From Escherichia coli (GTDB lineage Bacteria; Pseudomonadota; Gammaproteobacteria; Enterobacterales; Enterobacteriaceae), in assembly GCF_030013205.1 (NCBI RefSeq), contig NZ_CP122648.1: 64,000 nucleotides of DNA; one strand, 5' to 3'. Both the position numbers and the translations under genes were made by a program. This document shows positions 384-48,506 of this stretch, piece after piece. The notes beneath the pieces were generated by a model that had not been told where the DNA came from, ran no database searches, and saw only the letters and a list, made by a program, of their open reading frames with translations. Numbering within the stretch: position 1 is the first letter of the stretch; the number at the start of each line of letters is the position of its first letter.

Positions 384-1568
384 CTAAATATCTTTAATAA
401 ACAGCAGGCAAATCATCGCAATACCCAGCATTCCTATCGCCAGCCAGAACAACGCGTGGTAGCTCCAGATTTCAACCATAATTCCGTCAACAGAGCCGGC
501 GATAATCCAGCCGACGCGTGAAGTATTTGCATATAACGTTGTCGCAGAGCCTATTTTTTCAGGCATCAGGTCCTGAAAATAAAGCATGCCGATACCACAG
601 AGAATACCAAGGAAGATGGCATTTAGAATTTGCAATTCCAGCTCAACTACCGGAGTCGTCGCCATGAGTACGCTGGCGTAAAAATACATACCACTCACGA
701 TAGCAATGAGCATTAATAGTCGCTTGCCAATACGTTTCATGTAATAGCCTGCGATTAACATCATCGGAATTTCCAGACCGGCAGCAATACCAATCATTTC
801 TCCAGCCAGTTTATCGGTTAGATGCAGTTCATCAATAATAAATAGCGGCATATTTATCATGTAGAGATTATTCGCCGCCCACATCATTGAACAAACCACG
901 AAAAGTAGCCGTGTATCCCGCTTTCTATGGATGGAGGGTAAAATTTCTACGGGTTGGGTAACGACAGGAATATTTCTTTGTATTGATGGCAAAAACAACC
1001 AGACTATCAGCCCGCAAACAACAAATGCGATGGCTGCGGTGAGATACATCACTTTAAAACTAAATCCCATTGCCAGCTCATAAGCGAGCGGTGGCCCGAT
1101 AACCCAGGCAAGCGAGATCTGAGCACGTAAAAATGTACTGAACATGACCGTCTCACGGCCTGTTCTGTCGGCGTGTTCACGGGCGAGGGCGAACATTTGC
1201 GGGTTTGCAGTGGAAGCAAAACTACTCAGAAGTACGCCCGTAGAGAGGAGAATGAAGTAGTTGCGATTCCACGCAAAAAGCGTGCAGGCCAGCACTCCAA
1301 ATAAGCAACATAGCAGAATCAGTAATTTACGGTCGCCTTGTTTATCGGAGTGCCTTGCCAGAAATTGACTGACCAGAATTCCCATAATAGCGCTACCGGT
1401 GAAGAAAAAACCTACCATTATAGGACGAGCTTTCAGTTCATCTGCGAGGAATATACTTAAGGTGGGAGTCTGGAGAGCGCCCGCAATACCAGTCAGAAAG
1501 GCGACAAGTAAAAATGCCGCGGCAGTGAGATCAAGTATTTTTGATGGAGTGGTAGCCGTTTTTTGCAT
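384..1568 (-). CDS. setC: MFS sugar efflux transporter SetC (394 aa)
   Basis: 394-aa polytopic membrane protein from ORF track; recognised as SetC/YicK from sequence and from position adjacent to selC. Confidence 0.85.
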   Translation of the reverse strand: MQKTATTPSKILDLTAAAFLLVAFLTGIAGALQTPTLSIFLADELKARPIMVGFFFTGSAIMGILVSQFLARHSDKQGDRKLLILLCCLFGVLACTLFAWNRNYFILLSTGVLLSSFASTANPQMFALAREHADRTGRETVMFSTFLRAQISLAWVIGPPLAYELAMGFSFKVMYLTAAIAFVVCGLIVWLFLPSIQRNIPVVTQPVEILPSIHRKRDTRLLFVVCSMMWAANNLYMINMPLFIIDELHLTDKLAGEMIGIAAGLEIPMMLIAGYYMKRIGKRLLMLIAIVSGMYFYASVLMATTPVVELELQILNAIFLGILCGIGMLYFQDLMPEKIGSATTLYANTSRVGWIIAGSVDGIMVEIWSYHALFWLAIGMLGIAMICLLFIKDI

Positions 1569-2204
1569 TCTTCTGAATCACCGGGCGACAAAATATAACT
1601 GAGTTACAAATAAGTACCAGTCGAATGAGTATTGTATTAAGAATTTTTGAGTATCGCTGATACAACCAGAAAGCAATGCTAGCGCAATATTATAGGGCCA
1701 GCAATTGAGATTATTAGCAAAAGCATGTTAAGAATTAATCACCGAATTTATATATTAATTATAGTAAGGCAATGAGCTATTTTTGATAGTAAAAATAAAA
1801 CAAGTTGATTTGATATATTAAATGAAAAAATTAATCTTGATGACAGTCTGATTATTGGTGAAGTTTACAGGTCAGTTTTTTTCGCCAGCGGTTAAAGGAA
1901 TAGAATAGTCGTATAAAAAAGGGTGTTATGGAGCGTGTAAAACAATATCTTCACCTTAATGGCGATACAGTTGGCTGTGAGCCAGCAGGGGGCAAATCAC
2001 CTGCAAATAAACACGGCACATGCTGGCGCGCATATCGCGGATGCGTTCGAGGACAGAAGAACCGACAGGCGGATTCTTCAGCAGCTCATCGTCCATCACA
2101 AAACCTTTGACCAGGTATTTCTGAAGCCGATTGAATATTGAGCAGTAGAAAATATCTGGATTGACAGTATTACGAGGGGTTGGAGAACGTATGAAGAGGC
2201 AAAT

Positions 2205-2299
2205 TGGCGGAAGATCACAGGAGTCGAACCTGCCCGGGACCGCTGGCGGCCCCAACTGGATTTGAAGTCCAGCCGCCTCACCGGAGACGACGATCTTCC
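2205..2299 (-). tRNA. selC: tRNA-Sec (selenocysteine, anticodon UCA)
   Basis: Reverse complement reads GGAAGATCGTCGTCTCCGGTGAGGCGGCTGGACTTCAAATCCAGTTGGGGCCGCCAGCGGTCCCGGGCAGGTTCGACTCCTGTGATCTTCCGCCA, the 95-nt E. coli selC sequence with long variable arm and CCA end. Confidence 0.95.
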
Positions 2300-2568: not shown

Positions 2569-2579
2569 TGGATTTGCCC

Positions 2580-3485
2580 CTATATTTCCAGACATCTGTT
2601 ATCACTTAACCCATTACAAGCCCGCTGCCGCAGATATTCCCGTGGCGAGCGATAACCCAGCGCACTATGCGGATGCCATTCGTTATAATGCTCGAACGCC
2701 TCTGCAAGGTTCTTTGCTGCCGTTAACCCGTCTGGTTTGGGCATGATACTGATGTAGTCACGCTTTATCGTTTTCACGAAGCTCTCTGCTATTCCGTTAC
2801 TCTCCGGACTCCGCACCGCCGTGTTCTTCGGTTCAAGTCCCAACATCCGGGCGAACTGGCGTGTTTCATTAGCCCGGTAGCATGAACCATTATCCGTCAG
2901 CCACTCCACTGGAGACGACGGAAGATCGTTGCCGAAGCGGCGTTCCACCGCTCCCAGCATGACGTCCTGTACTGTTTCACTGTTGAAGCCGCCGGTAGTC
3001 ACCGCCCAGTGCAGTGCCTCACGATCACAGCAGTCCAGCGCGAACGTGACACGCAGTCTCTCTCCGTTATCACAGCAGAACTCGAACCCGTCAGAGCACC
3101 ATCGCTGATTGCTTTCTTTCACGGCCACTCTGCCTGTATGTGCCCGTTTCGATGGCGGTACAGCAGGTTTTCGCTCAAGCAACAGCGCATTCTGGCGCAT
3201 GATCCGGTAAACACGTTTGGCATTGATCGCAGACATACCATCAAGTTCTGCCTGTCTGCGAAGCAGCGCCCATACCCGACGATAACCATACGTGGGCAGC
3301 TCTCCGATAACATGGTGTATACGGAGAAGCACATCCGTATCATCAGTGTGACGACTGCGGCGGCCATCCATCCAGTCATCGGTTCGTCTGAGAATGACGT
3401 GCAACTGCGCACGCGACACCCGGAGACAACGGCTGACTAAGCTTACTCCCCATCCCCGGGCAATAAGGGCGCGTGCGCTATCCAC
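2580..3485 (-). CDS. insD: IS2 transposase OrfB (InsD) frame, 301 aa; expressed as OrfAB fusion by -1 frameshift
   Basis: ORF track protein [30 protein letters not shown]... with DDE integrase-type core; recognised as IS2 InsD. Confidence 0.9.
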
Positions 3486-3808
3486 TTTTTTGCCCGTCCA
3501 TATTCAACGGCTTCTTTGAGGAGTTCATTTTCCATCGTTTTCTTGCCGAGCAGGCGCTGGAGTTCTTTAATCTGCTTCATGGCGGCAGCAAGTTCAGAGG
3601 CAGGAACAACCTGTTCTCCGGCGGCGACAGCAGTAAGACTTCCTTCCTGGTATTGCTTACGCCAGAGAAATAACTGGCTGGCTGCTACACCATGTTGCCG
3701 GGCAACGAGGGAGACCGTCATCCCCGGTTCAAAGCTCTGCTGAACAATTGCGATCTTTTCCTGTGTGGTACGCCGTCTGCGTTTCTCCGGCCCTAAGACA
3801 TCAATCAT
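3443..3808 (-). CDS. insC: IS2 OrfA (InsC) HTH protein, 121 aa
   Basis: [41 protein letters not shown]...; start placed at the internal Met of the 136-aa track ORF to give the 121-aa InsC. Confidence 0.85.
3485..3491 (-). promoter_or_regulatory. Programmed -1 ribosomal frameshift heptamer A-AAA-AAG at the insC/insD overlap
   Basis: Minus strand reads GCA AAA AAG TGG in the InsC frame; the -1 frame continues GTG GAT AGC... which is the InsD N-terminus (MDSARAL). Confidence 0.7.
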
Positions 3809-3899
3809 CTGTTCTCCAATGACTAGTCTAAAAACTAGTATTAAGACTATCACTTATTTAAGTGATACTGGTTGTCTGGAGATTCAGGGGGCCAGTCTA

Positions 3900-3904
3900 G
3901 CACC
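3900..3904. repeat. 5-bp target-site duplication GCACC, right copy, flanking IS2
   Basis: GCACC immediately after the IS2 end at 3899. Confidence 0.85.
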
Positions 3905-3927: not shown

Positions 3928-5310
3928 ATGAAGAGTGAAGTGTTGTCCGTTAAAGAGAAAATTGGTTATGGCATGGGAGACGCCGCCAGCCACATTATTT
4001 TCGATAACGTAATGTTATATATGATGTTCTTTTATACCGATATTTTTGGCATTCCTGCCGGATTTGTCGGAACCATGTTTTTGGTCGCTCGTGCACTGGA
4101 TGCGATTTCCGATCCTTGCATGGGGTTGTTGGCCGATCGAACGCGCTCTCGCTGGGGTAAATTTCGTCCGTGGGTACTGTTTGGCGCACTGCCATTTGGG
4201 ATCGTCTGTGTACTGGCCTATAGCACGCCAGATCTCAGTATGAACGGCAAAATGATCTATGCAGCAATTACTTACACCCTACTTACCTTACTTTATACCG
4301 TCGTCAATATCCCTTACTGCGCATTGGGTGGTGTAATCACCAATGACCCGACTCAGCGTATCTCGCTGCAATCCTGGCGTTTTGTGCTGGCGACCGCGGG
4401 AGGCATGCTCTCTACTGTTCTGATGATGCCACTGGTTAATTTAATTGGCGGTGATAATAAACCACTCGGTTTCCAGGGCGGTATCGCGGTCCTTTCCGTG
4501 GTGGCATTCATGATGCTGGCATTTTGTTTCTTCACCACTAAAGAACGCGTTGAAGCACCACCTACAACGACGTCTATGCGGGAAGATTTACGTGATATCT
4601 GGCAAAACGACCAGTGGCGGATTGTCGGTTTACTAACCATTTTCAATATCCTGGCGGTGTGCGTACGCGGTGGGGCGATGATGTATTACGTCACATGGAT
4701 TTTGGGTACGCCGGAAGTGTTTGTCGCTTTTCTCACCACTTATTGCGTGGGTAACCTGATTGGTTCCGCACTGGCAAAACCGCTGACCGACTGGAAATGT
4801 AAAGTCACTATCTTCTGGTGGACGAACGCCCTGCTGGCAGTGATTAGCCTCGCGATGTTCTTTGTTCCTATGCAGGCCAGCATCACTATATTTGTCTTCA
4901 TCTTCGTGATTGGTGTGTTGCATCAACTGGTGACACCTATCCAGTGGGTAATGATGTCCGATACCGTCGACTACGGCGAGTGGTGCAATGGTAAACGCCT
5001 GACCGGGATCAGTTTTGCTGGCACGCTGTTTGTGCTCAAACTGGGGTTGGCCTTCGGCGGCGCTCTTATCGGCTGGATGCTGGCTTATGGCGGATATGAT
5101 GCGGCAGAAAAAGCGCAGAACAGCGCCACGATTAGCATCATTATTGCGCTATTCACGATTGTTCCGGCGATCTGTTATTTGCTGAGCGCGATTATCGCTA
5201 AACGCTACTACTCACTCACGACGCACAATCTGAAAACCGTTATGGAACAGCTGGCCCAGGGCAAACGCCGTTGCCAGCAACAATTCACCTCTCAAGAAGT
5301 GCAGAACTAA
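3928..5310 (+). CDS. yicJ: GPH-family (glycoside-pentoside-hexuronide:cation symporter) transporter YicJ, 460 aa
   Basis: 460-aa membrane protein MKSEVLSVKEKIGYGMGDAASHIIFDNVMLYMMFFYTDIFG...; directly upstream of yicI as in E. coli. Confidence 0.9.
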   Translation: MKSEVLSVKEKIGYGMGDAASHIIFDNVMLYMMFFYTDIFGIPAGFVGTMFLVARALDAISDPCMGLLADRTRSRWGKFRPWVLFGALPFGIVCVLAYSTPDLSMNGKMIYAAITYTLLTLLYTVVNIPYCALGGVITNDPTQRISLQSWRFVLATAGGMLSTVLMMPLVNLIGGDNKPLGFQGGIAVLSVVAFMMLAFCFFTTKERVEAPPTTTSMREDLRDIWQNDQWRIVGLLTIFNILAVCVRGGAMMYYVTWILGTPEVFVAFLTTYCVGNLIGSALAKPLTDWKCKVTIFWWTNALLAVISLAMFFVPMQASITIFVFIFVIGVLHQLVTPIQWVMMSDTVDYGEWCNGKRLTGISFAGTLFVLKLGLAFGGALIGWMLAYGGYDAAEKAQNSATISIIIALFTIVPAICYLLSAIIAKRYYSLTTHNLKTVMEQLAQGKRRCQQQFTSQEVQN

Positions 5311-5319
5311 GGAACGGCA

Positions 5320-7638
5320 ATGAAAATTAGCGACGGAAACTGGTTGATTCAACCTGGCCTCAATTTGATTCACCCGCTTCAGGTGTTCGAGGTTGAACAG
5401 CAGGGTAATGAAATGGTGGTCTATGCTGCCCCCCGTGATGTGCGTGAACGAACCTGGCAGCTTGATACGCCTTTATTTACGCTGCGCTTTTTCTCCCCAC
5501 AGGAAGGTATTGTCGGTGTACGGATTGAGCATTTTCAGGGGGCGCTGAATAACGGTCCTCATTATCCGCTCAATATTTTGCAGGACGTGAAGGTCACAAT
5601 CGAAAACACAGAACGTTACGCTGAGTTTAAAAGTGGCAACTTAAGCGCGCGTGTCAGCAAAGGTGAGTTCTGGTCACTGGATTTTCTGCGCAACGGCGAA
5701 CGTATTACCGGTAGTCAGGTGAAAAATAATGGCTACGTGCAGGACACGAATAATCAACGAAATTATATGTTTGAGCGGCTGGATCTTGGCGTTGGCGAAA
5801 CAGTTTACGGTCTGGGAGAGCGCTTTACTGCCCTGGTGCGCAATGGCCAGACGGTAGAGACCTGGAACCGGGACGGCGGCACAAGTACTGAACAGGCGTA
5901 TAAAAATATTCCGTTCTATATGACTAACCGTGGTTATGGGGTACTGGTCAATCATCCTCAATGCGTCTCTTTTGAAGTGGGATCGGAGAAAGTCTCCAAA
6001 GTGCAGTTCAGCGTTGAGAGTGAATATCTCGAATACTTTGTTATCGACGGCCCGACGCCGAAAGCGGTACTTGATCGTTATACCCGTTTTACTGGTCGTC
6101 CGGCGCTGCCGCCCGCGTGGTCCTTCGGCCTGTGGCTAACCACTTCATTTACCACCAACTACGACGAAGCGACGGTAAACAGCTTTATCGATGGTATGGC
6201 GGAACGCAATCTGCCACTGCATGTTTTCCACTTTGACTGTTTCTGGATGAAAGCCTTCCAGTGGTGCGATTTTGAGTGGGACCCGCTGACTTTCCCGGAC
6301 CCGGAAGGGATGATCCGCCGCCTGAAAGCGAAAGGGCTAAAAATCTGCGTCTGGATTAACCCCTATATCGGGCAAAAATCCCCTGTCTTTAAAGAGTTAC
6401 AAGAGAAAGGCTATTTACTCAAACGCCCGGACGGTTCGTTATGGCAGTGGGATAAATGGCAGCCAGGTCTGGCGATTTATGACTTTACCAATCCGGATGC
6501 CTGCAAATGGTACGCCGACAAACTGAAAGGTCTGGTCGCGATGGGCGTTGATTGCTTTAAGACCGACTTTGGCGAACGTATTCCAACCGATGTTCAGTGG
6601 TTTGACGGTTCCGATCCGCAGAAAATGCATAACCATTATGCGTACATCTACAACGAACTGGTGTGGAAAGTGCTCAAGGAAACCGTTGGCGAGGAAGAAG
6701 CCGTCTTGTTTGCTCGCTCGGCCTCCGTTGGTGCGCAGAAATTCCCGGTACACTGGGGTGGTGACTGTTACGCTAACTACGAATCAATGGCGGAAAGCCT
6801 GCGCGGTGGTTTGTCTATTGGCCTTTCAGGTTTTGGTTTCTGGAGCCACGATATCGGCGGCTTTGAGAATACCGCTCCGGCGCACGTTTACAAACGCTGG
6901 TGCGCGTTTGGTTTGCTCTCCAGCCATAGCCGTTTACATGGCAGCAAATCTTATCGTGTGCCGTGGGCCTACGATGATGAGTCCTGTGATGTGGTGCGCT
7001 TCTTCACGCAACTGAAATGCCGCATGATGCCGTATCTGTATCGTGAAGCTGCTCGTGCGAACGCGCGGGGTACGCCGATGATGCGGGCCATGATGATGGA
7101 GTTCCCGGACGATCCGGCTTGTGATTACCTTGACCGTCAATACATGTTAGGCGACAACGTGATGGTTGCTCCGGTGTTCACTGAAGCGGGCGATGTGCAG
7201 TTCTACTTGCCGGAAGGTCGCTGGACACATCTGTGGCACAACGATGAACTCGATGGTAGTCGCTGGCATAAACAGCAGCACAGCTTCCTGAGTCTGCCCG
7301 TTTATGTGCGTGATAACACCCTACTGGCGCTGGGCAACAACGAGCAACGTCCCGATTACGCGTGGCACGAAGGCACGGCATTCCAGCTCTTTAATCTACA
7401 AGACGGGCATGAAGCCATCTGTGAAGTGCCCGCTGCTGACGGTTCCGTTCTTTTCACCCTGAAAGCGGCGCGTACTGGCAACACGATTACTGTGACTGGT
7501 GCGGGCGAGGCGAAGAACTGGACACTGTGCTTGCGCAATGTTGTGAAAGTAAATGGTCTGCAAGGTGGTTCGCAGGCTGAAAGTGAGCAGGGACTGGTGG
7601 TGACTCCTCAAGGGAATGCGCTGACAATTACGTTGTAA
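5320..7638 (+). CDS. yicI: Alpha-xylosidase YicI (glycoside hydrolase family 31), 772 aa
   Basis: 772-aa ORF with GH31 hallmarks (WIDMNE-like region ...KTDFGERIP...); recognised as YicI. Confidence 0.9.
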
Positions 7639-7651
7639 TCTATTGAAGAAT

Positions 7652-7683
7652 GCCGGATACGAATGGTTTTGTGTCGTATCCGG
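7652..7683 (+). terminator. Stem-loop (GCCGGATACG ... CGTATCCGG) just after the yicI stop; REP-like or terminator hairpin
   Basis: Perfect 9-10 bp inverted repeat 14 bp after the yicI TAA; no strong U-tract. Confidence 0.45.
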
Positions 7684-7932
7684 TAAATAATCTCACATCT
7701 GGTAATAAATATTTCTTCCATCGTATTTGCGAGCATGATCACGATTATTCATCACGAAAATGTGATCTGTGCCGAAAAATATCTATTAACCGCCCCGTTT
7801 TGTTTTATACATGTCCGGACTACGGACAGATTTTAGTATTGTTGTGAAATTATTCTGCTTTATATTTACCCTCAGAGATGGCAACTGAAGCTCTTCCACA
7901 TGGGGCTTCTTAATCTGTGATAAGGGTAAAAA

Positions 7933-9486
7933 ATGCAAATGATTACCTCGCGACAAAACAGATTATTACGATTCCTTTTACCACGAAGGGAATATACGAC
8001 TATTGTTACGATTGCCGGCTATTTAAATGTTTCGGAAAAAACCATTCAACGTGATTTACGTTTACTTGAGCAATGGCTGGAACAATGGCGAATAACCGTT
8101 GAGAAGCGTGCTGGCGCAGGTGTGATGTTAGACTCGAAGAATATTACTGATTTGCTGCATCTTGATCATTTGTTGGGAGCAGAATGTGAAGAGATTGATG
8201 GTGTAATGAATAATGCCAGGCGCGTTAAAATAGCGTCGCAGTTATTAAGTGAAACACCGAATGAAACGTCGATCAGTAAATTGTCAGAGCGCTATTTTAT
8301 CAGTGGAGCCTCTATTGTTAATGACCTGAGAGTGATTGAGTCCTGGCTTGCGCCGTTGGGGTTATCATTGATCCGAAGCCCAAGTGGTACGCATATTGAA
8401 GGTAGTGAAGGGCAAGTCCGACAGGCAATGGCATTACTGATTAACGGCATTATTAACCATAATGAGCCGCAAGGTGTCGTGTATTCACGTCTGGATCCCG
8501 GAAGTTATAAAGCATTAGTCCATTATTTTGGAGAAGAAGAGGTGTTATTTGTCCAGTCATTGTTACTGGATATGGAAAATGAATTAAGTTGGTCTTTGGG
8601 AGAGCCTTATTACGTTAACATTTTTACTCACATCCTTATTATGATGTATCGCAACACGCACGGGAATGCGTTATCCAGAGAAGAAGATCAAACCAGGCAA
8701 TATGATGAAAATATCTTTAATGTTGCCAGTCAGATGATTCATAAGATAGAACAACGAATTGCACATACATTGCCCGATGATGAAGTCTGGTTTATTTATC
8801 AATATATCATTTCATCAGGTGTGGCGATTGATGGACAAAAAGATGTTAGCATTATTTCACATATGCAGGCCAGCAATGAAGCGCGTCTGATTACCTGGCG
8901 TTTAATTACGGTATTCAGTGACATCGTGGACTGCGATTTTAGTGAAGACAGCGCATTATATGATGGCTTGTTGGTTCATATTAAGCCGCTGATTAACCGA
9001 CTAAATTATCGCATTCATATCCGTAATCCATTGCTGGAAGATATTAAAGCAGAATTAGCGGATGTCTGGCGGTTGACGCAATATGTGGTGAATCAGGTAT
9101 TTAAAACCTGGGGTGAGAATGCAGTGAGCGAGGATGAAGTAGGTTACCTGACCGTTCATTTTCAGGCTGCGATGGAGCGGCAAATTGCCCGTAAACGTGT
9201 ATTACTGGTCTGTTCAACCGGAATCGGAACTTCGCATCTACTGAAAAGCCGTATTCTGCGAGCATTTCCTGAATGGACGATTGTTGATGTTATTTCAGCA
9301 GCGAATTTATCACAGGTTTTGCCTGACAATATCGAACTGATTATTTCGACCATTAATTTGCCTACAGTCACTATGCCGGTCGCTTATGTTACCGCTTTTT
9401 TTAATGATGCCGATATTAAGCGAGTCACTGAAATGGTGATTACGGAAAAATTACATCATGCGACATCTCGGGTCGTTGAAATTTAA
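7933..9486 (+). CDS. PRD-containing transcriptional activator (BglG/LicR/MtlR type) with N-terminal HTH and C-terminal PTS EIIB-like domain, 517 aa
   Basis: N-terminal winged-helix region (TIVTIAGYLNVSEKTIQRDLRLLEQ), central PRD-like regions, C-terminal LLVCSTGIGTSHLLKSRI (EIIB-Gat-like phosphorylatable Cys motif); heads a PTS operon. Confidence 0.7.
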   Translation: MQMITSRQNRLLRFLLPRREYTTIVTIAGYLNVSEKTIQRDLRLLEQWLEQWRITVEKRAGAGVMLDSKNITDLLHLDHLLGAECEEIDGVMNNARRVKIASQLLSETPNETSISKLSERYFISGASIVNDLRVIESWLAPLGLSLIRSPSGTHIEGSEGQVRQAMALLINGIINHNEPQGVVYSRLDPGSYKALVHYFGEEEVLFVQSLLLDMENELSWSLGEPYYVNIFTHILIMMYRNTHGNALSREEDQTRQYDENIFNVASQMIHKIEQRIAHTLPDDEVWFIYQYIISSGVAIDGQKDVSIISHMQASNEARLITWRLITVFSDIVDCDFSEDSALYDGLLVHIKPLINRLNYRIHIRNPLLEDIKAELADVWRLTQYVVNQVFKTWGENAVSEDEVGYLTVHFQAAMERQIARKRVLLVCSTGIGTSHLLKSRILRAFPEWTIVDVISAANLSQVLPDNIELIISTINLPTVTMPVAYVTAFFNDADIKRVTEMVITEKLHHATSRVVEI

Positions 9487-10000: not shown

Positions 10001-10315
10001 ATGAATATTGTCTGTGTTGCCGCCTGCACGGCGGGTATTGCTCACACCTATATTGCTCGTGAAAAGTTAATTAAAGGGGCAAAAGCACTGGGCCACACCA
10101 TTAAAGTTGAAACCCAGGGAACCATTGGTACAGAAAACGAATTGCAGGCGGCAGAGATCTCTGCTGCTGACGTCGTGATTCTTGCTGTGGATGTGAAAAT
10201 AAAAGGAGAAGAACGTTTTACCAATAAACGCATTGTGCGAGTAAAGACAGAGATCGTCATTAAATCGCCCGTTCAATTTCTTGAAAAGGTCGAAAAATCA
10301 CTGGGAAATAAATGA
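10001..10315 (+). CDS. PTS EIIB component, fructose-like family, 104 aa
   Basis: MNIVCVAACTAGIAHTYIAREKL...: N-terminal CxxCxxGIAHT phospho-Cys motif typical of fructose-type EIIB. Confidence 0.75.
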   Translation: MNIVCVAACTAGIAHTYIAREKLIKGAKALGHTIKVETQGTIGTENELQAAEISAADVVILAVDVKIKGEERFTNKRIVRVKTEIVIKSPVQFLEKVEKSLGNK

Positions 10316-10339
10316 TCCTTATACTGGAGGGATCTTAAT

Positions 10340-11431
10340 ATGAAAGAAAATAAAATTCCGGTTTCACAGGAAATTAAAAAACATTTATTAACCGGCATCT
10401 CGTGGATGATACCCCTTATTGTGGCCGCCGGGATATGTATTGCGTTGGGGCAAGTTCTTGGCGGTACAGATGTTGGTGAAAAAACAGGAACAATCCCGTG
10501 GATGCTTAATCAGATTGGCGGCTGGGGAATGGGGCTGATTGTGCCGCTGATTAGCGCGGCAATTGCCTATTCTATTGCCGATCGTCCCGGATTTGCCCCG
10601 GGCCTGATTGTCGGCTTTCTCTGTGGGCAAATCCATACCGGATTTATTGGCGGTATGTTGGGTGGTTTCCTGGTGGGCTACACCATTTTGCTACTTAAAC
10701 GCTATATTCGCCTGCCGCAGTCGATGCAAGGACTCATGCCAATCATGGTGTTGCCGGTATTAAGCACCATTATCGGTGGGCTGTTAATGATGACGCTGAT
10801 TGGTAAACCCATCGCCTGGTTACAAGAAGCACTGATTCATTTGCTCGAGTCGATGCAGGGCGGATCGCGCTTCCTGATGGGGGCCATACTTGGCGCGATG
10901 GCAACCTTCGATTTCGGTGGTCCGGTCAACAAAACCATGTCGCTGTTTTCCGATGGCTTGCTGGTCAGTGGCGTCTACGGACCAGAAGCCGTGAAATTTG
11001 TCGGCTCAATCATCCCTCCGTTTGGCATCACACTTTCGTTCTTACTGACACGCCATAAATACACCCGTGCGGAGCGCGAGGCGCTGAAAGCCGCGTTTCC
11101 GATGGGGATCTGCATGATCACTGAAGGAGTCATTCCGATCGCCGCGCGTGACCTGTTGCGAGTAGTGGGATCTTGTGTGGTGGCATCGGCGGTCGCGGGC
11201 GGCTTAATCATGGTGTGGGGCGTGGAGAGTCCGGTTCCACATGGCGGCATGTTTGTTGTGCCTCTGTTCACCCATCCTCTGCTGTTTTGCCTGGCGCTGG
11301 GTATAGGCACGGTGATTTGTGGCGTGATGCTTTCACTCTGGAAGAAACCGGTAACGGAACGCGACGAAGAGTTTGACGAACTGAGCGATCAAAAGCTGAA
11401 AGATGAAGAGATCACTTTCACCCTCGAATAA
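10340..11431 (+). CDS. PTS EIIC permease component, fructose-like family, 363 aa
   Basis: Polytopic membrane protein immediately downstream of EIIA/EIIB; Gly-rich TM helices typical of EIIC-Fru. Confidence 0.7.
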   Translation: MKENKIPVSQEIKKHLLTGISWMIPLIVAAGICIALGQVLGGTDVGEKTGTIPWMLNQIGGWGMGLIVPLISAAIAYSIADRPGFAPGLIVGFLCGQIHTGFIGGMLGGFLVGYTILLLKRYIRLPQSMQGLMPIMVLPVLSTIIGGLLMMTLIGKPIAWLQEALIHLLESMQGGSRFLMGAILGAMATFDFGGPVNKTMSLFSDGLLVSGVYGPEAVKFVGSIIPPFGITLSFLLTRHKYTRAEREALKAAFPMGICMITEGVIPIAARDLLRVVGSCVVASAVAGGLIMVWGVESPVPHGGMFVVPLFTHPLLFCLALGIGTVICGVMLSLWKKPVTERDEEFDELSDQKLKDEEITFTLE

Positions 11432-42629: not shown

Positions 42630-43646
42630 ATGAGTGCCCACTATTTTAATCCACAAGAGATGATCAATAAGACAATCATCTTCGATGAAAGGCCAGCGGC
42701 GTCAGTGGCATCATCATTCCATGTTGCTTATGGCATTGATAAAAACTTTCTTTTTGGTTGTGGTGTTTCAATCACGTCAGTTTTGTTACATAACAACGAC
42801 GTGAGTTTTGTTTTCCACGTTTTTATTGATGATATCCCTGAAGCCGATATCCAGCGTTTAGCCCAATTGGCGAAAAGCTATCGTACCTGTATCCAGATCC
42901 ATCTAGTAAATTGTGAACGGCTTAAGGCATTACCGACGACCAAAAATTGGTCTATTGCCATGTATTTCCGTTTTGTAATTGCAGATTACTTTATTGATCA
43001 ACAAGATAAGATCCTTTACCTGGATGCTGATATCGCCTGTCAGGGAAACTTAAAGCCGCTGATAACAATGGATCTTGCCAATAACGTTGCTGCTGTTGTT
43101 ACTGAACGCGATGCTAACTGGTGGTCGTTACGGGGTCAAAGTCTGCAGTGTAATGAACTTGAAAAGGGTTACTTTAATTCAGGTGTCCTGTTAATTAATA
43201 CACTAGCGTGGGCGCAGGAGTCCGTTTCTGCTAAAGCGATGTCGATGCTTGCTGATAAAGCCATCGTTTCCCGTTTAACCTATATGGATCAAGATATCCT
43301 TAATCTTATCCTGTTAGGGAAAATTAAATTCATTGATGCTAAATACAATACGCAATTTAGTTTAAATTATGAATTAAAAAAATCATTTGTTTGTCCAATT
43401 AATGATGAAACCGTATTAATTCATTATGTCGGCCCGACAAAACCCTGGCATTACTGGGCCGGTTATCCAAGTGCGCAACCTTTTATCAAAGCCAAAGAAG
43501 CATCGCCCTGGAAAAATGAACCGTTAATGCGGCCAGTTAACTCAAACTATGCTCGTTATTGCGCCAAGCATAATTTTAAACAAAATAAACCAATTAACGG
43601 GATAATGAATTATATTTATTATTTTTATTTAAAGATAATAAAATGA
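42630..43646 (+). CDS. waaO: GT8 outer-core alpha-glycosyltransferase, first after waaP (WaaO-like, Glc II transferase), 338 aa
   Basis: GT8 hallmarks YGIDKNFLFG, DxD region (LYLDADI) and TKPWHYWAGYPSA; positional equivalent of waaO. Confidence 0.6.
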   Translation: MSAHYFNPQEMINKTIIFDERPAASVASSFHVAYGIDKNFLFGCGVSITSVLLHNNDVSFVFHVFIDDIPEADIQRLAQLAKSYRTCIQIHLVNCERLKALPTTKNWSIAMYFRFVIADYFIDQQDKILYLDADIACQGNLKPLITMDLANNVAAVVTERDANWWSLRGQSLQCNELEKGYFNSGVLLINTLAWAQESVSAKAMSMLADKAIVSRLTYMDQDILNLILLGKIKFIDAKYNTQFSLNYELKKSFVCPINDETVLIHYVGPTKPWHYWAGYPSAQPFIKAKEASPWKNEPLMRPVNSNYARYCAKHNFKQNKPINGIMNYIYYFYLKIIK

Positions 43647-43662
43647 AATTGAGAAAAGTTAA

Positions 43663-44658
43663 ATGAATGAATTTATAAAAGAACGGTTTTCGTATTTAGC
43701 AGATAATAAAAAAGAAAACGCCCCAGAGCTAAATGTTTCCTACGGTATCGATAAGAATTTTTTGTATGGTGCTGGCGTTTCAATTTCTTCCGTTTTGATT
43801 AATAATTCAGATATTAATTTTGTCTTTCATGTTTTCACTGATTATGTGGATGATGATTATTTAAAGTCATTTAATGAAACAGCAAAACAATTTAATACCT
43901 CAATTATTGTATATTTAATTGACCCCAAATACTTTGCTGATCTGCCGACGTCACAGTTTTGGTCGTACGCGACATACTTCAGGGTATTGTCTTTTGAATA
44001 TCTGAGTGAAAGTATTTCCACACTGCTGTATCTGGATGCCGATGTTGTTTGTAAAGGAAGCCTGAAACCTCTCACAGAAATTATATTTAAAGATGAGTTT
44101 GCTGCGGTCATTCCTGACAATGATAGTACTCAGGCGGCATGTGCAAAACGCCTCAACATTCCCGAAATGAATGGACGTTATTTCAATGCAGGCGTTATCT
44201 ATGTCAATCTTAAAAAATGGCATGAAGCAAATTTGACACCGTATTTACTCAAACTTTTACGAGGGGAAACTAAATATGGCTCTCTTAAATATTTAGATCA
44301 GGATGCGTTGAATATCGCATTTAATATGAATAATATCTACCTTGCGAAGGATTTTGATACTATTTATACCCTGAAAAACGAACTTTATGATCGTAGTCAT
44401 CGAAAGTATCAGCAAACCATTACCGATAAAACAGTGTTGATTCACTATACAGGGATAACTAAACCATGGCATAGCTGGGCTGGATATCCGTCTGCATCAT
44501 ACTTTAATATCGCGCGTGAACAATCTCCCTGGAAGAAATATCCTCTTAAAGAGGCGCGGACTGTTGCAGAAATGCAGAAACAATATAAGCATCTGTTTGC
44601 CCATGGTGAGTATATTAAAGGCATAACTTCATTAATTAAGTACAAGCTTAAGAAATAA
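43663..44658 (+). CDS. waaT: GT8 outer-core alpha-glycosyltransferase, second paralogue (WaaT-like in R1/R4 nomenclature), 331 aa
   Basis: YGIDKNFLYGAG, LYLDADV, TKPWHSWAGYPSA; symbol assigned by gene order only. Confidence 0.5.
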   Translation: MNEFIKERFSYLADNKKENAPELNVSYGIDKNFLYGAGVSISSVLINNSDINFVFHVFTDYVDDDYLKSFNETAKQFNTSIIVYLIDPKYFADLPTSQFWSYATYFRVLSFEYLSESISTLLYLDADVVCKGSLKPLTEIIFKDEFAAVIPDNDSTQAACAKRLNIPEMNGRYFNAGVIYVNLKKWHEANLTPYLLKLLRGETKYGSLKYLDQDALNIAFNMNNIYLAKDFDTIYTLKNELYDRSHRKYQQTITDKTVLIHYTGITKPWHSWAGYPSASYFNIAREQSPWKKYPLKEARTVAEMQKQYKHLFAHGEYIKGITSLIKYKLKK

Positions 44659-44667
44659 ATTACTATT

Positions 44668-45360
44668 ATGATTACAAGTATACGCTATCGCGGCTTCTCA
44701 TTTTATTACAAAGATAATGATAATAAATATAAAGAAATCTTTGATGAAATACTGGCCTATAATTTTAAAACAGTAAAAGTATTACGTAATATTGATGATA
44801 CCAAAGTATCGTTGATTGATACGAAATATGGTCGCTATGTTTTTAAAGTCTTTGCCCCGAAAACGAAAAGGAATGAACGTTTTTTAAAATCTTTTGTAAA
44901 AGGTGACTACTATCAGAATTTGATCGTTGAAACCGATCGTGTCAGAAGTGCAGGTCTTACTTTTCCTAATGATTTTTATTTTCTGGCTGAGCGTAAAATT
45001 TTCAACTATGCCAGTGTTTTTATCATGCTTATCGAGTATGTCGAGGGCGTAGAGCTCAATGATATGCCGATTATTCCAGAAAATGTTAAAGCAGAAATTA
45101 AGGCTTCAATGGAAAAATTGCATGCCTTAAATATGCTATCGGGCGACCCACACCGGGGTAACTTTATCGTTAGTAAAGATGGTGTCAGGATAATTGACCT
45201 ATCCGGTAAAAGCTGTACGGCAGAGCGGAAAGCTCGTGATCGTCTGGCCATGGAACGTCACCTGGGTATTGCCAACGAAATAAAAGATTATGGCTACTAT
45301 TCAGTAATCTACAGAACCAAACTACGCAAATTTATTAAAAAATTAAAAGGCAAAGCGTAA
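44668..45360 (+). CDS. waaY: LPS core heptose(II) kinase WaaY, 230 aa
   Basis: Small kinase-like protein (…SGDPHRGNFIV…IDLSGK…) between outer-core glycosyltransferases, as in known waa clusters. Confidence 0.8.
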   Translation: MITSIRYRGFSFYYKDNDNKYKEIFDEILAYNFKTVKVLRNIDDTKVSLIDTKYGRYVFKVFAPKTKRNERFLKSFVKGDYYQNLIVETDRVRSAGLTFPNDFYFLAERKIFNYASVFIMLIEYVEGVELNDMPIIPENVKAEIKASMEKLHALNMLSGDPHRGNFIVSKDGVRIIDLSGKSCTAERKARDRLAMERHLGIANEIKDYGYYSVIYRTKLRKFIKKLKGKA

Positions 45361-45385
45361 ACCACACAGTCAAAACGGAACCAAC

Positions 45386-46414
45386 ATGGATTTATTAGCT
45401 GAGAGTATTACTGAAGTCGCTGTCTCTGGGGAAATTGCTAACACCGATCGTGTGTTAAATATCGCTTACGGTATTGACCGTAATTTTTTATTTGGTGCGG
45501 CCGTATCTATGCAATCAGTTGTTATGCATAACCCGGACCTTGCGGTTAAGTTTCATCTCTTTACCGACTACATTGATGAAGATTATCTACAACGTGTTAA
45601 CGCTTTTACCAGCAAAAATGCTAACGTTGAAGTAAGAATTTATAAAGTCTCCAGTGCCTTTATTGATATTTTCCCCAGCCTGAAACAGTGGTCTTATGCA
45701 ACATTCTTCCGTTTGGTTGCGTTCCAGTATCTGAGTGAAACTATTGAAAATCTGTTATATATCGATGCTGATGTCATCTGTAAAGGCTCATTAGCTGGAT
45801 TGCTTGATATTAATTTTGATGGCGATAAGTTCGCAGCTGTTATTAAAGATGTGCCTTTTATGCAGGAAAAACCAGCGAAGCGTCTGGCTATAGAGGGACT
45901 TCCAGGTAATTATTTCAACGCCGGTGTAGTATATCTGCAGCTTGAAGCATGGGCGAAAAATGATTTTATGAATAAAGCCATTGCTATGCTGGCAAGTGAC
46001 CCGCAGCATACGAAGTATAAATGCCTTGATCAGGATATTTTAAATATTCTGTTCTTTGGTCATTGTATTTTTATTAGCGGCGATTATGATTGCTTTTATG
46101 GCATTGACTATGAGTTAAAAAATAAAAGCGATGAAGATTATAAAAAGACCATTACCGATGATACTAAGCTGATTCATTATGTTGGCGTAACGAAGCCCTG
46201 GAACGACTGGACGAATTATCCCTGCCAGAAGTATTTTAATGAGGCTTATCAGGCTTCTTGCTGGAATGATGTGGCGTTTATTCCAGCCACGAATGAAAAG
46301 CAGTATCAAGTGAAATCCAGACATTTGAAAAGAAATGGTAAAATTGCATCTTCATTTTACTATTTCATGCTCTATTATAGTAAGAAAATAGCGCGTAAGC
46401 ATTTTTCCAAATAA
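45386..46414 (+). CDS. waaW: GT8 outer-core alpha-glycosyltransferase, third paralogue (WaaW-like), 342 aa
   Basis: YGIDRNFLFGAA, LYIDADV, TKPWNDWTNYP; symbol assigned by gene order only. Confidence 0.5.
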   Translation: MDLLAESITEVAVSGEIANTDRVLNIAYGIDRNFLFGAAVSMQSVVMHNPDLAVKFHLFTDYIDEDYLQRVNAFTSKNANVEVRIYKVSSAFIDIFPSLKQWSYATFFRLVAFQYLSETIENLLYIDADVICKGSLAGLLDINFDGDKFAAVIKDVPFMQEKPAKRLAIEGLPGNYFNAGVVYLQLEAWAKNDFMNKAIAMLASDPQHTKYKCLDQDILNILFFGHCIFISGDYDCFYGIDYELKNKSDEDYKKTITDDTKLIHYVGVTKPWNDWTNYPCQKYFNEAYQASCWNDVAFIPATNEKQYQVKSRHLKRNGKIASSFYYFMLYYSKKIARKHFSK

Positions 46415-46445
46415 TTATTAAGATTAATCATCCAGAGATTTTTTA

Positions 46446-47213
46446 ATGAACTTGCCCATTTATATTGTCTCACTTAAAAGAGATATTGAGCGAAGAAATA
46501 AAATAAATGATGTTTTTCATCGATTAAATATTAATTTTGATTTTTTTGATGCCATAGATGCTAAAGACCCTCAAAATAAAGAAATTATTGATAAAATGAG
46601 ATTAAGTGGTGTCGGCGCAGAAATGACTGATGGAGAAATTGCTTGTACATTAAGTCATCAGCTTATATATCAGGATATGATAGATAAAAATATAGAATGG
46701 GCAGTCATTCTCGAGGATGATGTTATCGTCAATGAGAAATTTAAAAAATTTCTGCAATATTTTAATCTTTCTGAAAAAGACAAGTTAAAACATAATAATT
46801 TGTATTTGCTTGGAGGACAGAAAGGATTACATGATTATCCGGTATTGGGGCAAAGCCTTTTTAGTAAAGTTAAGGTAAGTACTTGTACTTTTCGGCGTGT
46901 TAATTTCAATAAAAATAAAATTCGGCGTACATGTTCATATTTGATGAATAAAGATATGGCACAAAAGTTGCTCAAATTGACAAAGGATTATGGCACCTAT
47001 CGAGCTGATAGCTGGAAGTTAATGCATCAACATAATATTATAAAAGAGTTTTATTTAGACGAAATAATATTACATCCTATTTTAAATGAGTTTAATAGTC
47101 ATCTTGAAAGTGAAAGGCTATTAACATCGGAAAAAAAACAACCTAGAACAAGGCTTCAGAAAAGAATGAAGTTTATACGCTCCTGGATAAAGGTGGCTTT
47201 TTTTCTCTTTTGA
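46446..47213 (+). CDS. GT25-family LPS beta-glycosyltransferase (WaaV/WaaX-like; Lic2A/LgtB-like), 255 aa
   Basis: IYIVSLKRDIERR ... FFDAIDA ... TLSHQ ... ILEDDV motifs typical of GT25; cannot tell WaaV (R1) from WaaX (R4) by eye. Confidence 0.65.
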   Translation: MNLPIYIVSLKRDIERRNKINDVFHRLNINFDFFDAIDAKDPQNKEIIDKMRLSGVGAEMTDGEIACTLSHQLIYQDMIDKNIEWAVILEDDVIVNEKFKKFLQYFNLSEKDKLKHNNLYLLGGQKGLHDYPVLGQSLFSKVKVSTCTFRRVNFNKNKIRRTCSYLMNKDMAQKLLKLTKDYGTYRADSWKLMHQHNIIKEFYLDEIILHPILNEFNSHLESERLLTSEKKQPRTRLQKRMKFIRSWIKVAFFLF

Positions 47214-47252
47214 AATGAGATTGTTAATTTCAATTTGTTGTGAGATATTAAC

Positions 47253-48506
47253 GTGGAAGTAAAAATTGAGCAATTTCGAAATAATAGCTGTAATTTTATT
47301 TTTTTATTGTATTTAATCGGTTTGTTGTTTGTGCCAATTGATCTTAATATCACCACTAAAATAATTAATGCGACAGGTGCATTTTCTCTTTTCTTATTAA
47401 TTGTAAATAAAAAGCATAATTATAATAAAAATGTCATTATATTAATTCTTGGTTTACTTCTTTTGGGTGCAATGAACCTTATATGGTATGAATTTTATAA
47501 AACAGAAGATGTAGTATATAGAAATGCTTATCGAGGCTACCTTGAGTCTGGAAAACTATTAGTATTTAGCTCGTTGACATTTTTATTACTAAGTAAAAAT
47601 AAATTCAGGCAAAATGAAAAACTACATTTTATTTCAGCTATCTTAGTTCAAATAATCATGCTATGTAGAGCATATTATCAAGGGATATATTTGCATGCAG
47701 ACCGCATTCCCCTCTCCGCCATGAATGGGAATATTGGTCAGATGGGGGCAGCGACTATTGCGGCTTATGTGATTACATTTACAACTTTATATTCTTCAAT
47801 TGTATTCATAAAAATGCAATCGAAATATAAATGCTTTCTATTTTATGCTAACTTTGCTTTAAGCTTTGCAGCAGTAATGATGACAGGAACGCGTGCGGCA
47901 ATTTTCACATTCCCACTTATGATTATGGTCATATTATTTCTTCAGCATCGTGATCAAAAAGTGTTTTTATTTAAAGGATTGAGTGGTGTTTTTATATTGC
48001 TACTTGCTTGTGGTTTGATATTTAATAAGGAAATTGATAGGCGAATTAATTCATTAAAAGCTGATGTTATTTCATATGCTACAAAAAATAACAGTCAATC
48101 CTCGGTCGGAGCACGTTTTGCAATGGTTAATGCAGGAATTAAAGGAAGTCCTGATGGTTTTAATTGGCAATCTCTTGAGCAGCGTGCTGAAAAGATAAAA
48201 GCATTAAGTGCAGAAAATAATATTTATAGTGGAGCTTTATTATTCCTTGATGTACATATGCATAACGAAATTGTGGAATCTCTTTCCACGAAAGGAAAAA
48301 TTGGTCTTCTTGTTCTTATTATGTTCTATGTTGCAATGATCTATTACTGTATACGAGAGAAAAAATATATACTCTTGGTTTTCCCTGCTTCTATTATGTT
48401 ATTTGGCATTAGTGATGTCATTACACATGCTAAACCAATACCGGCATCGTGGATTGTGTGCCTCTTCCTGTCTATATCGTTTTTGAGTAAAAATGAACCA
48501 CAATAA
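47253..48506 (+). CDS. waaL: O-antigen ligase WaaL, ~417 aa, not the K-12 allele
   Basis: Polytopic membrane protein with a large periplasmic loop, last gene of the outer-core operon, convergent with waaC; track ORF starts at a GTG so the true start is uncertain. Confidence 0.8.
   Translation: MEVKIEQFRNNSCNFIFLLYLIGLLFVPIDLNITTKIINATGAFSLFLLIVNKKHNYNKNVIILILGLLLLGAMNLIWYEFYKTEDVVYRNAYRGYLESGKLLVFSSLTFLLLSKNKFRQNEKLHFISAILVQIIMLCRAYYQGIYLHADRIPLSAMNGNIGQMGAATIAAYVITFTTLYSSIVFIKMQSKYKCFLFYANFALSFAAVMMTGTRAAIFTFPLMIMVILFLQHRDQKVFLFKGLSGVFILLLACGLIFNKEIDRRINSLKADVISYATKNNSQSSVGARFAMVNAGIKGSPDGFNWQSLEQRAEKIKALSAENNIYSGALLFLDVHMHNEIVESLSTKGKIGLLVLIMFYVAMIYYCIREKKYILLVFPASIMLFGISDVITHAKPIPASWIVCLFLSISFLSKNEPQ

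Follow-up and report, generated by a model that had tools for sequence, protein, structure and literature searches.

A decayed rhuM fragment in the selC-setC spacer of Escherichia coli, probably a trace of old mobile DNA at the selC attachment site

Results

Layout, composition and existing annotation of the selC-setC spacer

We analysed a 64 kb stretch of E. coli DNA (the window) in which the tRNA-Sec gene selC is followed on the minus strand by setC, and the features that the argument needs are given here by window coordinates.

384-1568, minus strand: setC, sugar efflux transporter of 394 aa (open reading frame)
1569-1760, minus strand: native setC upstream region of ~190 bp, the part of the AT-rich half nearest setC (by homology to the E. 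albertii-type locus L138)
1761-1960, no strand: orphan, extremely AT-rich DNA with 20-30% GC (by composition)
1961-1997, minus strand: weak colinear rhuM tail, about codons 172-184, after a 9-bp deletion (alignment A1)
1998-2127, minus strand: internal rhuM fragment, codons 118-168 of a ~340-aa RhuM-family protein (PF13310, blastn, alignment)
1956-2255, minus strand: 99-aa ORF with a TTG start inside selC (list of open reading frames)
2128-2204, no strand: Escherichia-specific segment of 77-78 bp between selC and the rhuM fragment (by homology to L138)
2193-2228, minus strand: attachment-site core of current selC islands, the last 24 nt of selC plus ~10-12 nt of flank (by the limits of matches)
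2205-2299, minus strand: selC, tRNA-Sec gene, anticodon UCA (ARAGORN; Rfam RF01852, 83.8 bits)
2570-3900, minus strand: complete IS2 of 1331 bp between selC and yicJ (inverted repeats 2577-2609 and 3858-3890)

Given the coordinates of selC and setC, the spacer on the 3' side of selC is 1569-2204, the 636 bp that an earlier note on this DNA had stated, and its first base directly adjoins the CCA end of selC. The name of setC comes from a RefSeq genome, CFSAN018748, whose spacer is 100% identical to that of the window and in which the gene is annotated by name; compared with the E. albertii-type locus (L138 8554-9744), the setC of the window shows 79% nucleotide identity. Since CFSAN018748 has selC and yicJ without IS2, the IS2 insertion is recent; this copy is 100% identical to annotated IS2 copies, lies ~270 bp upstream (on the 5' side) of selC and is not part of the relic described below.

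Evaluating base composition, we found the spacer to be 38% GC against 49.7% for the whole window, and the two-part structure that had been proposed for it held up: 29.2% GC for 1620-1920, with a minimum of 20-23% at 1700-1850 that just 0.13% of the 150-bp windows in the 64 kb reach, and 48.5% GC for 1930-2160, within which the rhuM part (1961-2127) is 53.9% GC. Elsewhere in the window, 43253-48102 is a very AT-rich run (150-bp windows of 27% GC or less), which NCBIfam matches (LPS 3-alpha-galactosyltransferase, RfaY kinase) identify as the waa (rfa) LPS core biosynthesis cluster.

Adjacency to a tRNA 3' end and deviating composition are two marks of a tRNA-linked island, and others were looked for as well. 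A search for an integrase ORF in the selC-setC interval found none, in agreement with the earlier note, whereas occupied selC sites in other genomes do carry integrases. No second copy of the 24-nt selC 3' end, with up to 3 mismatches, was found in the 64 kb, and the degenerate direct repeat that the earlier note had proposed to look for was likewise not found. With no integrase, att repeat or other island gene in the window, an origin from an integrated element has to be argued by comparison with other genera.

The feature between the two genes is already known, as yicT/b4653 in K-12 and, in RefSeq E. coli genomes, as a pseudogene of rhuM. In the K-12 reference (NC_000913.3), pseudogene yicT (b4653) occupies 3836425-3836556, which places it 109-240 bp past selC and is equivalent to about 1965-2096 of the window; in a spacer-identical genome PGAP annotates a "rhuM" (RhuM family protein) pseudogene at L001 4430-4558, corresponding to 1998-2126, and in a K-12 derivative the PGAP rhuM pseudogene bears the note "internal stop". 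Both the position between selC and setC and the sequence agree (the K-12 spacer is 95.9% identical to that of the window), such that locus, strand and sequence are the same and nothing essential differs. Because the window allele lacks a TAA found in K-12 and has one C fewer in a run of C, its open frame is longer (99 aa) and its C-terminus different. Among the papers searched, none was found to treat yicT or a rhuM relic in E. coli.

An internal fragment of rhuM

The earlier note had quoted a minus-strand frame that looked like coding sequence, and that frame is exactly present in the 99-aa ORF. We found that it scores 37.8 bits (E=1.7e-9) against the Pfam family PF13310 (Virulence_RhuM), whose gathering cut-off is 33.7, and covers profile positions 50-105, i.e., 56 of 252; with neither a complete domain nor a full-length ORF (~340 aa), it represents a pseudogene fragment of the RhuM family. 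At the nucleotide level, identity to intact rhuM genes is 82-88% over 130 bp with E-values down to 2e-29, and the ungapped counts are 115/130 (88%) for E. albertii, 108/130 (83%) for Salmonella and 106/130 (82%) for P. vulneris. By blastn the fragment hits Salmonella rhuM (L007 10351-10503) with E=6e-22 and matches that of Phytobacter (L010) as well, and it also aligns with the rhuM of Enterobacter and Morganella.

Residues aligned to RhuM are 118-168 in the window and 118-182 in K-12, less the 8 residues lost to a 24-bp in-frame deletion (residues 142-149, AVPDYFDE). A deletion junction of the fragment reads GGTTCTTCTGTCCTCGAACGC. A second deletion, of 9 bp, follows codon 168, and beyond it the weak tail at 1961-1997 continues in a reading frame that varies among E. 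coli alleles; a tblastn match of Salmonella RhuM to the K-12 allele runs to residue 182, only 18/32 positions of the tail match E. albertii, and shuffle tests of the tail were modest (27/1000). No other rhuM piece was found in the spacer in any frame. Judged by these alignments, only ~130-167 bp of the spacer is demonstrably rhuM, and ~350 bp of the 5' part and ~480 bp of the 3' part of the gene have been lost from the E. coli locus. The 99-aa ORF is the rhuM frame extended by chance at both ends and is not a gene.

Candidates for further rhuM sequence were tried and rejected. An extension of the fragment towards selC was suggested by a weak tblastn likeness ('RSPTPRNT') in segment 2128-2204, for which DNA-level shuffles score as well, and the segment showed no similarity to the rhuM 5' region (~30% identity in alignment A1). 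A second piece at ~1945-1965 (codons ~212-230) emerged from one K-12-versus-Salmonella alignment (1/1000 shuffles) and was rejected because it did not repeat with other rhuM genes or the E. albertii flank. A metagenome contig (L005, ENA ERZ22666167) appears to join a longer rhuM N-terminus to the E. coli relic: its positions 1-240 hold the reverse complement of one rhuM variant and a second rhuM N-terminus, followed by the relic and setC. The joint carries a palindrome, the contig end is a fold-back of another rhuM variant and the first 240 bp have no match in complete E. coli genomes; the contig looks fold-back or chimeric, and we treated it as an assembly chimera.

The reading of the spacer as ordinary intergenic or promoter DNA, and of the frame as an ORF that arose by chance where GC is higher, is already refuted by the PF13310 match above the curated cut-off and by the nucleotide identity to intact rhuM, and NCBI and K-12 curators annotate a pseudogene here, so that we give it virtually no credence even though the frame lacks a consensus start and begins inside selC, the spacer has no RNA family or unusual fold, and the part closest to setC is indeed a conserved upstream sequence.

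Decay among E. coli alleles

Comparing six E. coli alleles (alignment A1), we found that both internal deletions and the fragment end points are common to all those sampled, and that the alleles otherwise differ by 5-7 substitutions per 130 bp and by a range of disruptions. Past codon 168, a 1-bp indel in the run of C residues yields two C-termini, 'ICPLLAHSQLYRH' versus 'IFPPADSQPTVSPLR'; the K-12 allele has an in-frame TAA stop; and just selC-ward of the fragment the ST3 allele has a 1-bp insertion and the HS4 allele a 15-bp deletion. Gene callers predict 60 different short "proteins" here, of 43-116 aa, with ORF ends that vary by genome. Given the frameshifts, stop codon and deletions that set these alleles apart, the rhuM fragment is dead; judged by its sequence, it is a non-functional pseudogene piece with no sign of function.

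These alleles also bear on whether the frame is instead a live small gene, a truncated RhuM-derived peptide of ~50-100 aa kept for its function. Such a gene would fit the retention of the 24-bp in-frame deletion in the sampled alleles, the open core (118-168) of the window and the many short proteins that gene callers predict; the K-12 stop, the frameshifting indels right after codon 168 that give differing C-termini and predicted lengths of 43-116 aa, the start that is not conserved, the coverage of 56/252 PF13310 positions and the ~1740 genomes without the fragment altogether argue against it, and we regard it as very improbable.

Nor did we see an RNA element in the spacer: an Rfam scan returned tRNA-Sec and no other RNA family, the fold of the 265 nt after selC was unremarkable (z-score -0.40), and on these two results such an element was ruled out. 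Terminator-like matches in the spacer were weak.

The flanks of the fragment

On the setC side, the AT-rich half of the spacer begins with DNA shared with the E. albertii-type locus. Window 1722..1647 aligns with L138 8418-8490 at a score of 56 that 0/500 shuffles reached, window 1759..1699 aligns with L138 8384-8440 at a score reached by 7/500 shuffles, and the setC blastn match to L138 itself extends to 1581. We infer a setC promoter or leader role for 1569-1760 rather than reading it directly from motifs, since a search for a minus-strand consensus promoter in the spacer found none.

The remaining AT-rich DNA (1761-1960) showed no significant similarity to the E. albertii, Salmonella, Phytobacter and P. 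vulneris loci or to rhuM, and it may be the last trace of a lost element. A plasmid or phage source for the AT-rich part was sought and set aside, the plasmid and phage collections giving just misfiled or contaminating E. coli DNA and a 47-bp low-complexity Fusobacterium match. Among these records, two "Campylobacter phage" genomes, A18a (MG065686.1, 68927-69559) and A11a (MG065691.1, 104564-105196), contain the E. coli selC-setC spacer, in both cases 95.9% identical to the window, the same value as for K-12, and most likely reflect contamination by E. coli K-12 or chimeric assembly. Three PLSDB records (NZ_CP141089.1, NZ_OL790696.1 and CP061233.1), which are E. coli "plasmids" of 1.0-4.9 Mb with the chromosomal selC-setC spacer, are evidently mislabelled chromosomes or chromosome fragments.

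On the selC side, 2128-2204 is homologous to L138 8095-8170 (score 50, 0/1000 shuffles). This L138 counterpart of the 78-bp segment directly follows an att-like repeat and lies outside the element that holds the intact rhuM. E. albertii, Phytobacter and P. vulneris all share the conserved selC flank itself (2193-2204).

Intact rhuM beside selC in other genera

An intact rhuM was found shortly after selC, and oriented alike, in six other genera or species: Salmonella, Phytobacter, P. vulneris, E. albertii, Enterobacter and Morganella. The E. albertii, P. vulneris, Enterobacter and Morganella loci came from a scan of genome contigs with a degenerate motif of variable gap, in which the matches listed were mostly intact rhuM of unrelated phyla and included no further Escherichia species with the relic. 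The layouts, in the coordinates of each locus, are these.

Salmonella (L007): selC 7008-7102, rhuM 10001-11023, intact (340 aa), same orientation, with DUF4942 fragments between
Phytobacter (L010): selC 9017-9111, rhuM 10001-11029
P. vulneris (L030): selC 803-897, rhuM 1147-2175; selC 3'-end repeat 2280-2303 (21/24 positions)
Enterobacter ENT03 (L070) and Morganella (L062): selC present, rhuM ~200 bp downstream
E. albertii-type (L138): selC 5179-5273, rhuM 6931-7968, intact, 345 aa; selC 3'-end repeat 8073-8094, 105 bp after the intact rhuM
Salmonella, selC 3'-end repeat: 11141-11159

The E. albertii-type locus, from a sister species of E. coli, thus has a full rhuM between selC and setC; its genes run selC, integrase fragment, DUF4942, rhuM, setC, yicL, yicS. 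In Salmonella (L007), rhuM is followed by an autotransporter and then a Trans_reg_C regulator, the SPI-3 order, which we take to be misL and marT. The SPI-3 gene set at selC is sugR-rhuM-rmbA-misL-fidL-marT-slsA-cigR-mgtBC, and the presence of rhuM in this pathogenicity island was reportedly described by Blanc-Potard et al. in 1999. E. coli shows only the rhuM fragment of this set, with setC as the next gene. The SPI-3 rhuM and the fragment share Pfam family, selC side and orientation, at 83% identity over the retained 130 bp; they differ in that the Salmonella gene is intact and 2.9 kb from selC behind DUF4942 fragments, whereas E. coli keeps codons ~118-184, followed by setC.

In three genera, a degenerate repeat of the 24-nt selC 3' end lies 105-118 bp past the rhuM stop, and in two of them, E. 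albertii and P. vulneris, the ~50-90 bp that precede the repeat share homology with the right arm of CP4-like selC islands from E. coli. The selC 3'-end repeat and this conserved right arm indicate that rhuM is the last gene inside a selC-integrated element in these genera. The same repeat was searched for after rhuM in Enterobacter ENT03, Morganella and Phytobacter and was found in none of them, so rhuM could also be a chromosomal gene that has long stood beside selC. In E. albertii TW07627 (L137), too, no selC repeat was found after rhuM, and an IS1 is there instead. In that locus (L137 10695-13060, CH991859.1) the intact rhuM and the IS1 are followed by envC-like, gpmI, grxC, secB, gpsA and cysE, genes that map far away in E. 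coli, with setC and yicL missing, which suggests an IS1-mediated deletion or rearrangement.

A further occupant was seen in Phytobacter, where L011 1-9111 (AP025334.1) is a P4-like satellite (psu, ogr/delta, alpA, primase) integrated at selC, with a 22/24 selC-end repeat at 9088-9111 directly before a bhsA-like gene and rhuM; this satellite represents reuse of the same site in another genus.

As for the ancestral gene of the fragment, RhuM-like proteins occur in restriction-modification loci and have been proposed to be toxin domains (PMC3710099). The ancestral gene belongs to the same family as the RhuM-like proteins of type I restriction-modification and defence loci described there, for which function is proposed for intact proteins only; the fragment, covering 56/252 positions, cannot be assumed active. 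One metagenomic RhuM relative lies directly after hsdS and hsdM.

Present-day selC islands and the distribution of the spacer

Among 5426 complete E. coli genomes, we found the spacer in 3684 (with a coverage of at least 80% in 3617 of these), the setC 5' part plus spacer in 3766, and selC plus the adjoining 300 bp of spacer as one contiguous stretch in 2487. In ~1200 genomes the spacer is present and separated from selC by an island with the 24-nt selC repeat. Matches in island-bearing genomes end at window 2193-2195 on the selC side and run through 2228 on the far side, such that the far-side match includes the 24-nt repeat of the selC end; in alignment A1, this selC end is repeated beside island DNA in two genomes (L012 9301-9324), and in one example a CP4-like island (CbtA/YeeU ... 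DUF4942) abuts the repeat. Islands insert between selC and the spacer and leave the spacer at their far end, which places the relic outside present islands and makes it older than them.

CP4-57-like E. coli islands (integrase-CbtA/YeeU-DUF4942, alone or beside LEE) use the same attachment site, and the right arm before their attR is homologous to DNA after rhuM in E. albertii and P. vulneris. Those examined contain no rhuM, and the relic lies outside them.

Some ~1740 of the 5426 genomes lack the spacer, and a nearly equal number lack the setC 5' part. Where examined, spacer absence was tied to loss of the setC 5' end after island gain and not to an "empty" site: an O157:H7 genome has selC, an integrase, a prophage remnant, LEE and then a 174-bp 3' stub of setC, and in another genome 55 bp is all that remains of the spacer, the rest having given way to IS1 copies and an integrase fragment.

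There is a second variable region a few kb away from selC. Right after yicS, the present lineage (L001 1-155 and L012 1-4820) carries type III secretion genes (SycD/LcrH chaperone, YopB/SseC translocon, IpaD/SipD tip protein), and K-12, per the Z142-6 layout, has nepI after yicS instead.

Discussion

Bringing these comparisons together, we interpret the spacer as a mosaic that old mobile DNA left behind at the attachment site in selC, whose GC-rich core is a non-functional internal fragment of rhuM (yicT), and we place the probability of this reading at about 85%. The earlier suggestion that the spacer is the decayed edge of a former selC-associated element thereby gains support: the frame is a RhuM-family fragment, and rhuM lies downstream of selC elsewhere. 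The same note had held that a frame without protein similarity, in a spacer identical in all E. coli whatever their islands, would be ordinary intergenic DNA; neither was the case, and the protein similarity to the RhuM family is clear.

What kind of rhuM locus left the fragment is a narrower question. The fragment and the intact E. albertii and Salmonella genes might derive from one insertion, mostly deleted in E. coli, as their shared selC-setC position and orientation and the highest identity, to E. albertii, would suggest. The gene orders conflict with this: the E. albertii type runs rhuM, att-like repeat, 78-bp segment, setC, and E. coli runs selC, 78-bp segment, fragment, setC, and a single deletion cannot convert either order into the other. 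With the fragment beyond the 78-bp segment as seen from selC and the E. albertii rhuM before it, no single deletion links them, and a common insertion therefore seems to us unlikely.

Somewhat better placed, although still improbable in our view, is the reading of the relic as the remnant of a vertically inherited chromosomal rhuM next to selC rather than of an integrated element. It draws on P. vulneris, Enterobacter ENT03, Morganella and Phytobacter, where rhuM sits 180-900 bp from selC with no integrase, and in three of those four with no selC repeat after it, and on identities that broadly follow relatedness (E. albertii 88%, Salmonella 83%, P. vulneris 82%). It has to contend with the selC 3'-end repeat and conserved island right arm that follow rhuM in P. 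vulneris, E. albertii and Salmonella, with neighbours that differ from genus to genus, and with the standing of RhuM-family genes as typical cargo of restriction-modification and defence loci (PMC3710099).

Under the preferred reading, an integrated element, the course of events may have been as follows. An E. coli ancestor would have carried a selC-integrated, rhuM-bearing element, from which deletions would have removed rhuM codons 1-117 together with everything up to the short selC flank, and also everything after about codon 184. The AT-rich DNA that remains would then comprise ~190 bp of native setC upstream sequence and ~200 bp of orphan sequence. Since then the sampled alleles have gained their frameshifts, stop codon and small deletions; current islands integrate into the selC 3' end (~2193-2228), pushing the whole spacer to their far end, and some island gains, e.g., that of LEE in O157:H7, also deleted the spacer and most of setC. 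The fragment itself would now do nothing, and the live roles of the spacer would be the attachment-site core and, presumably, the setC promoter.

Because no simple deletion leads from the E. albertii arrangement to that of E. coli, we assume an older, separate rhuM-bearing occupant. A more tentative extension, which we consider possible and rather doubtful, is that selC in Enterobacterales has repeatedly been occupied by one element family with rhuM as the last gene inside the right att, the E. coli fragment belonging to an older generation than the E. albertii and Salmonella copy. If true, this layered reading would explain why the fragment lies beyond the 78-bp segment that follows the E. 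albertii att-like repeat. This two-generation reading would be the one mildly new element, yicT itself being annotated already.

The finding explains the composite look of the selC-setC spacer in K-12-like E. coli and matters little beyond bookkeeping; in practice, annotators should not count the 99-aa ORF as a gene. It confirms that even an "empty" selC site bears the scar of earlier mobile DNA, and the comparative layout illustrates how tRNA-linked islands stack and decay. Should the layered reading be true, rhuM would be the conserved "terminal cargo" of a family of selC-specific elements, and the spacer would record successive integrations in layers.
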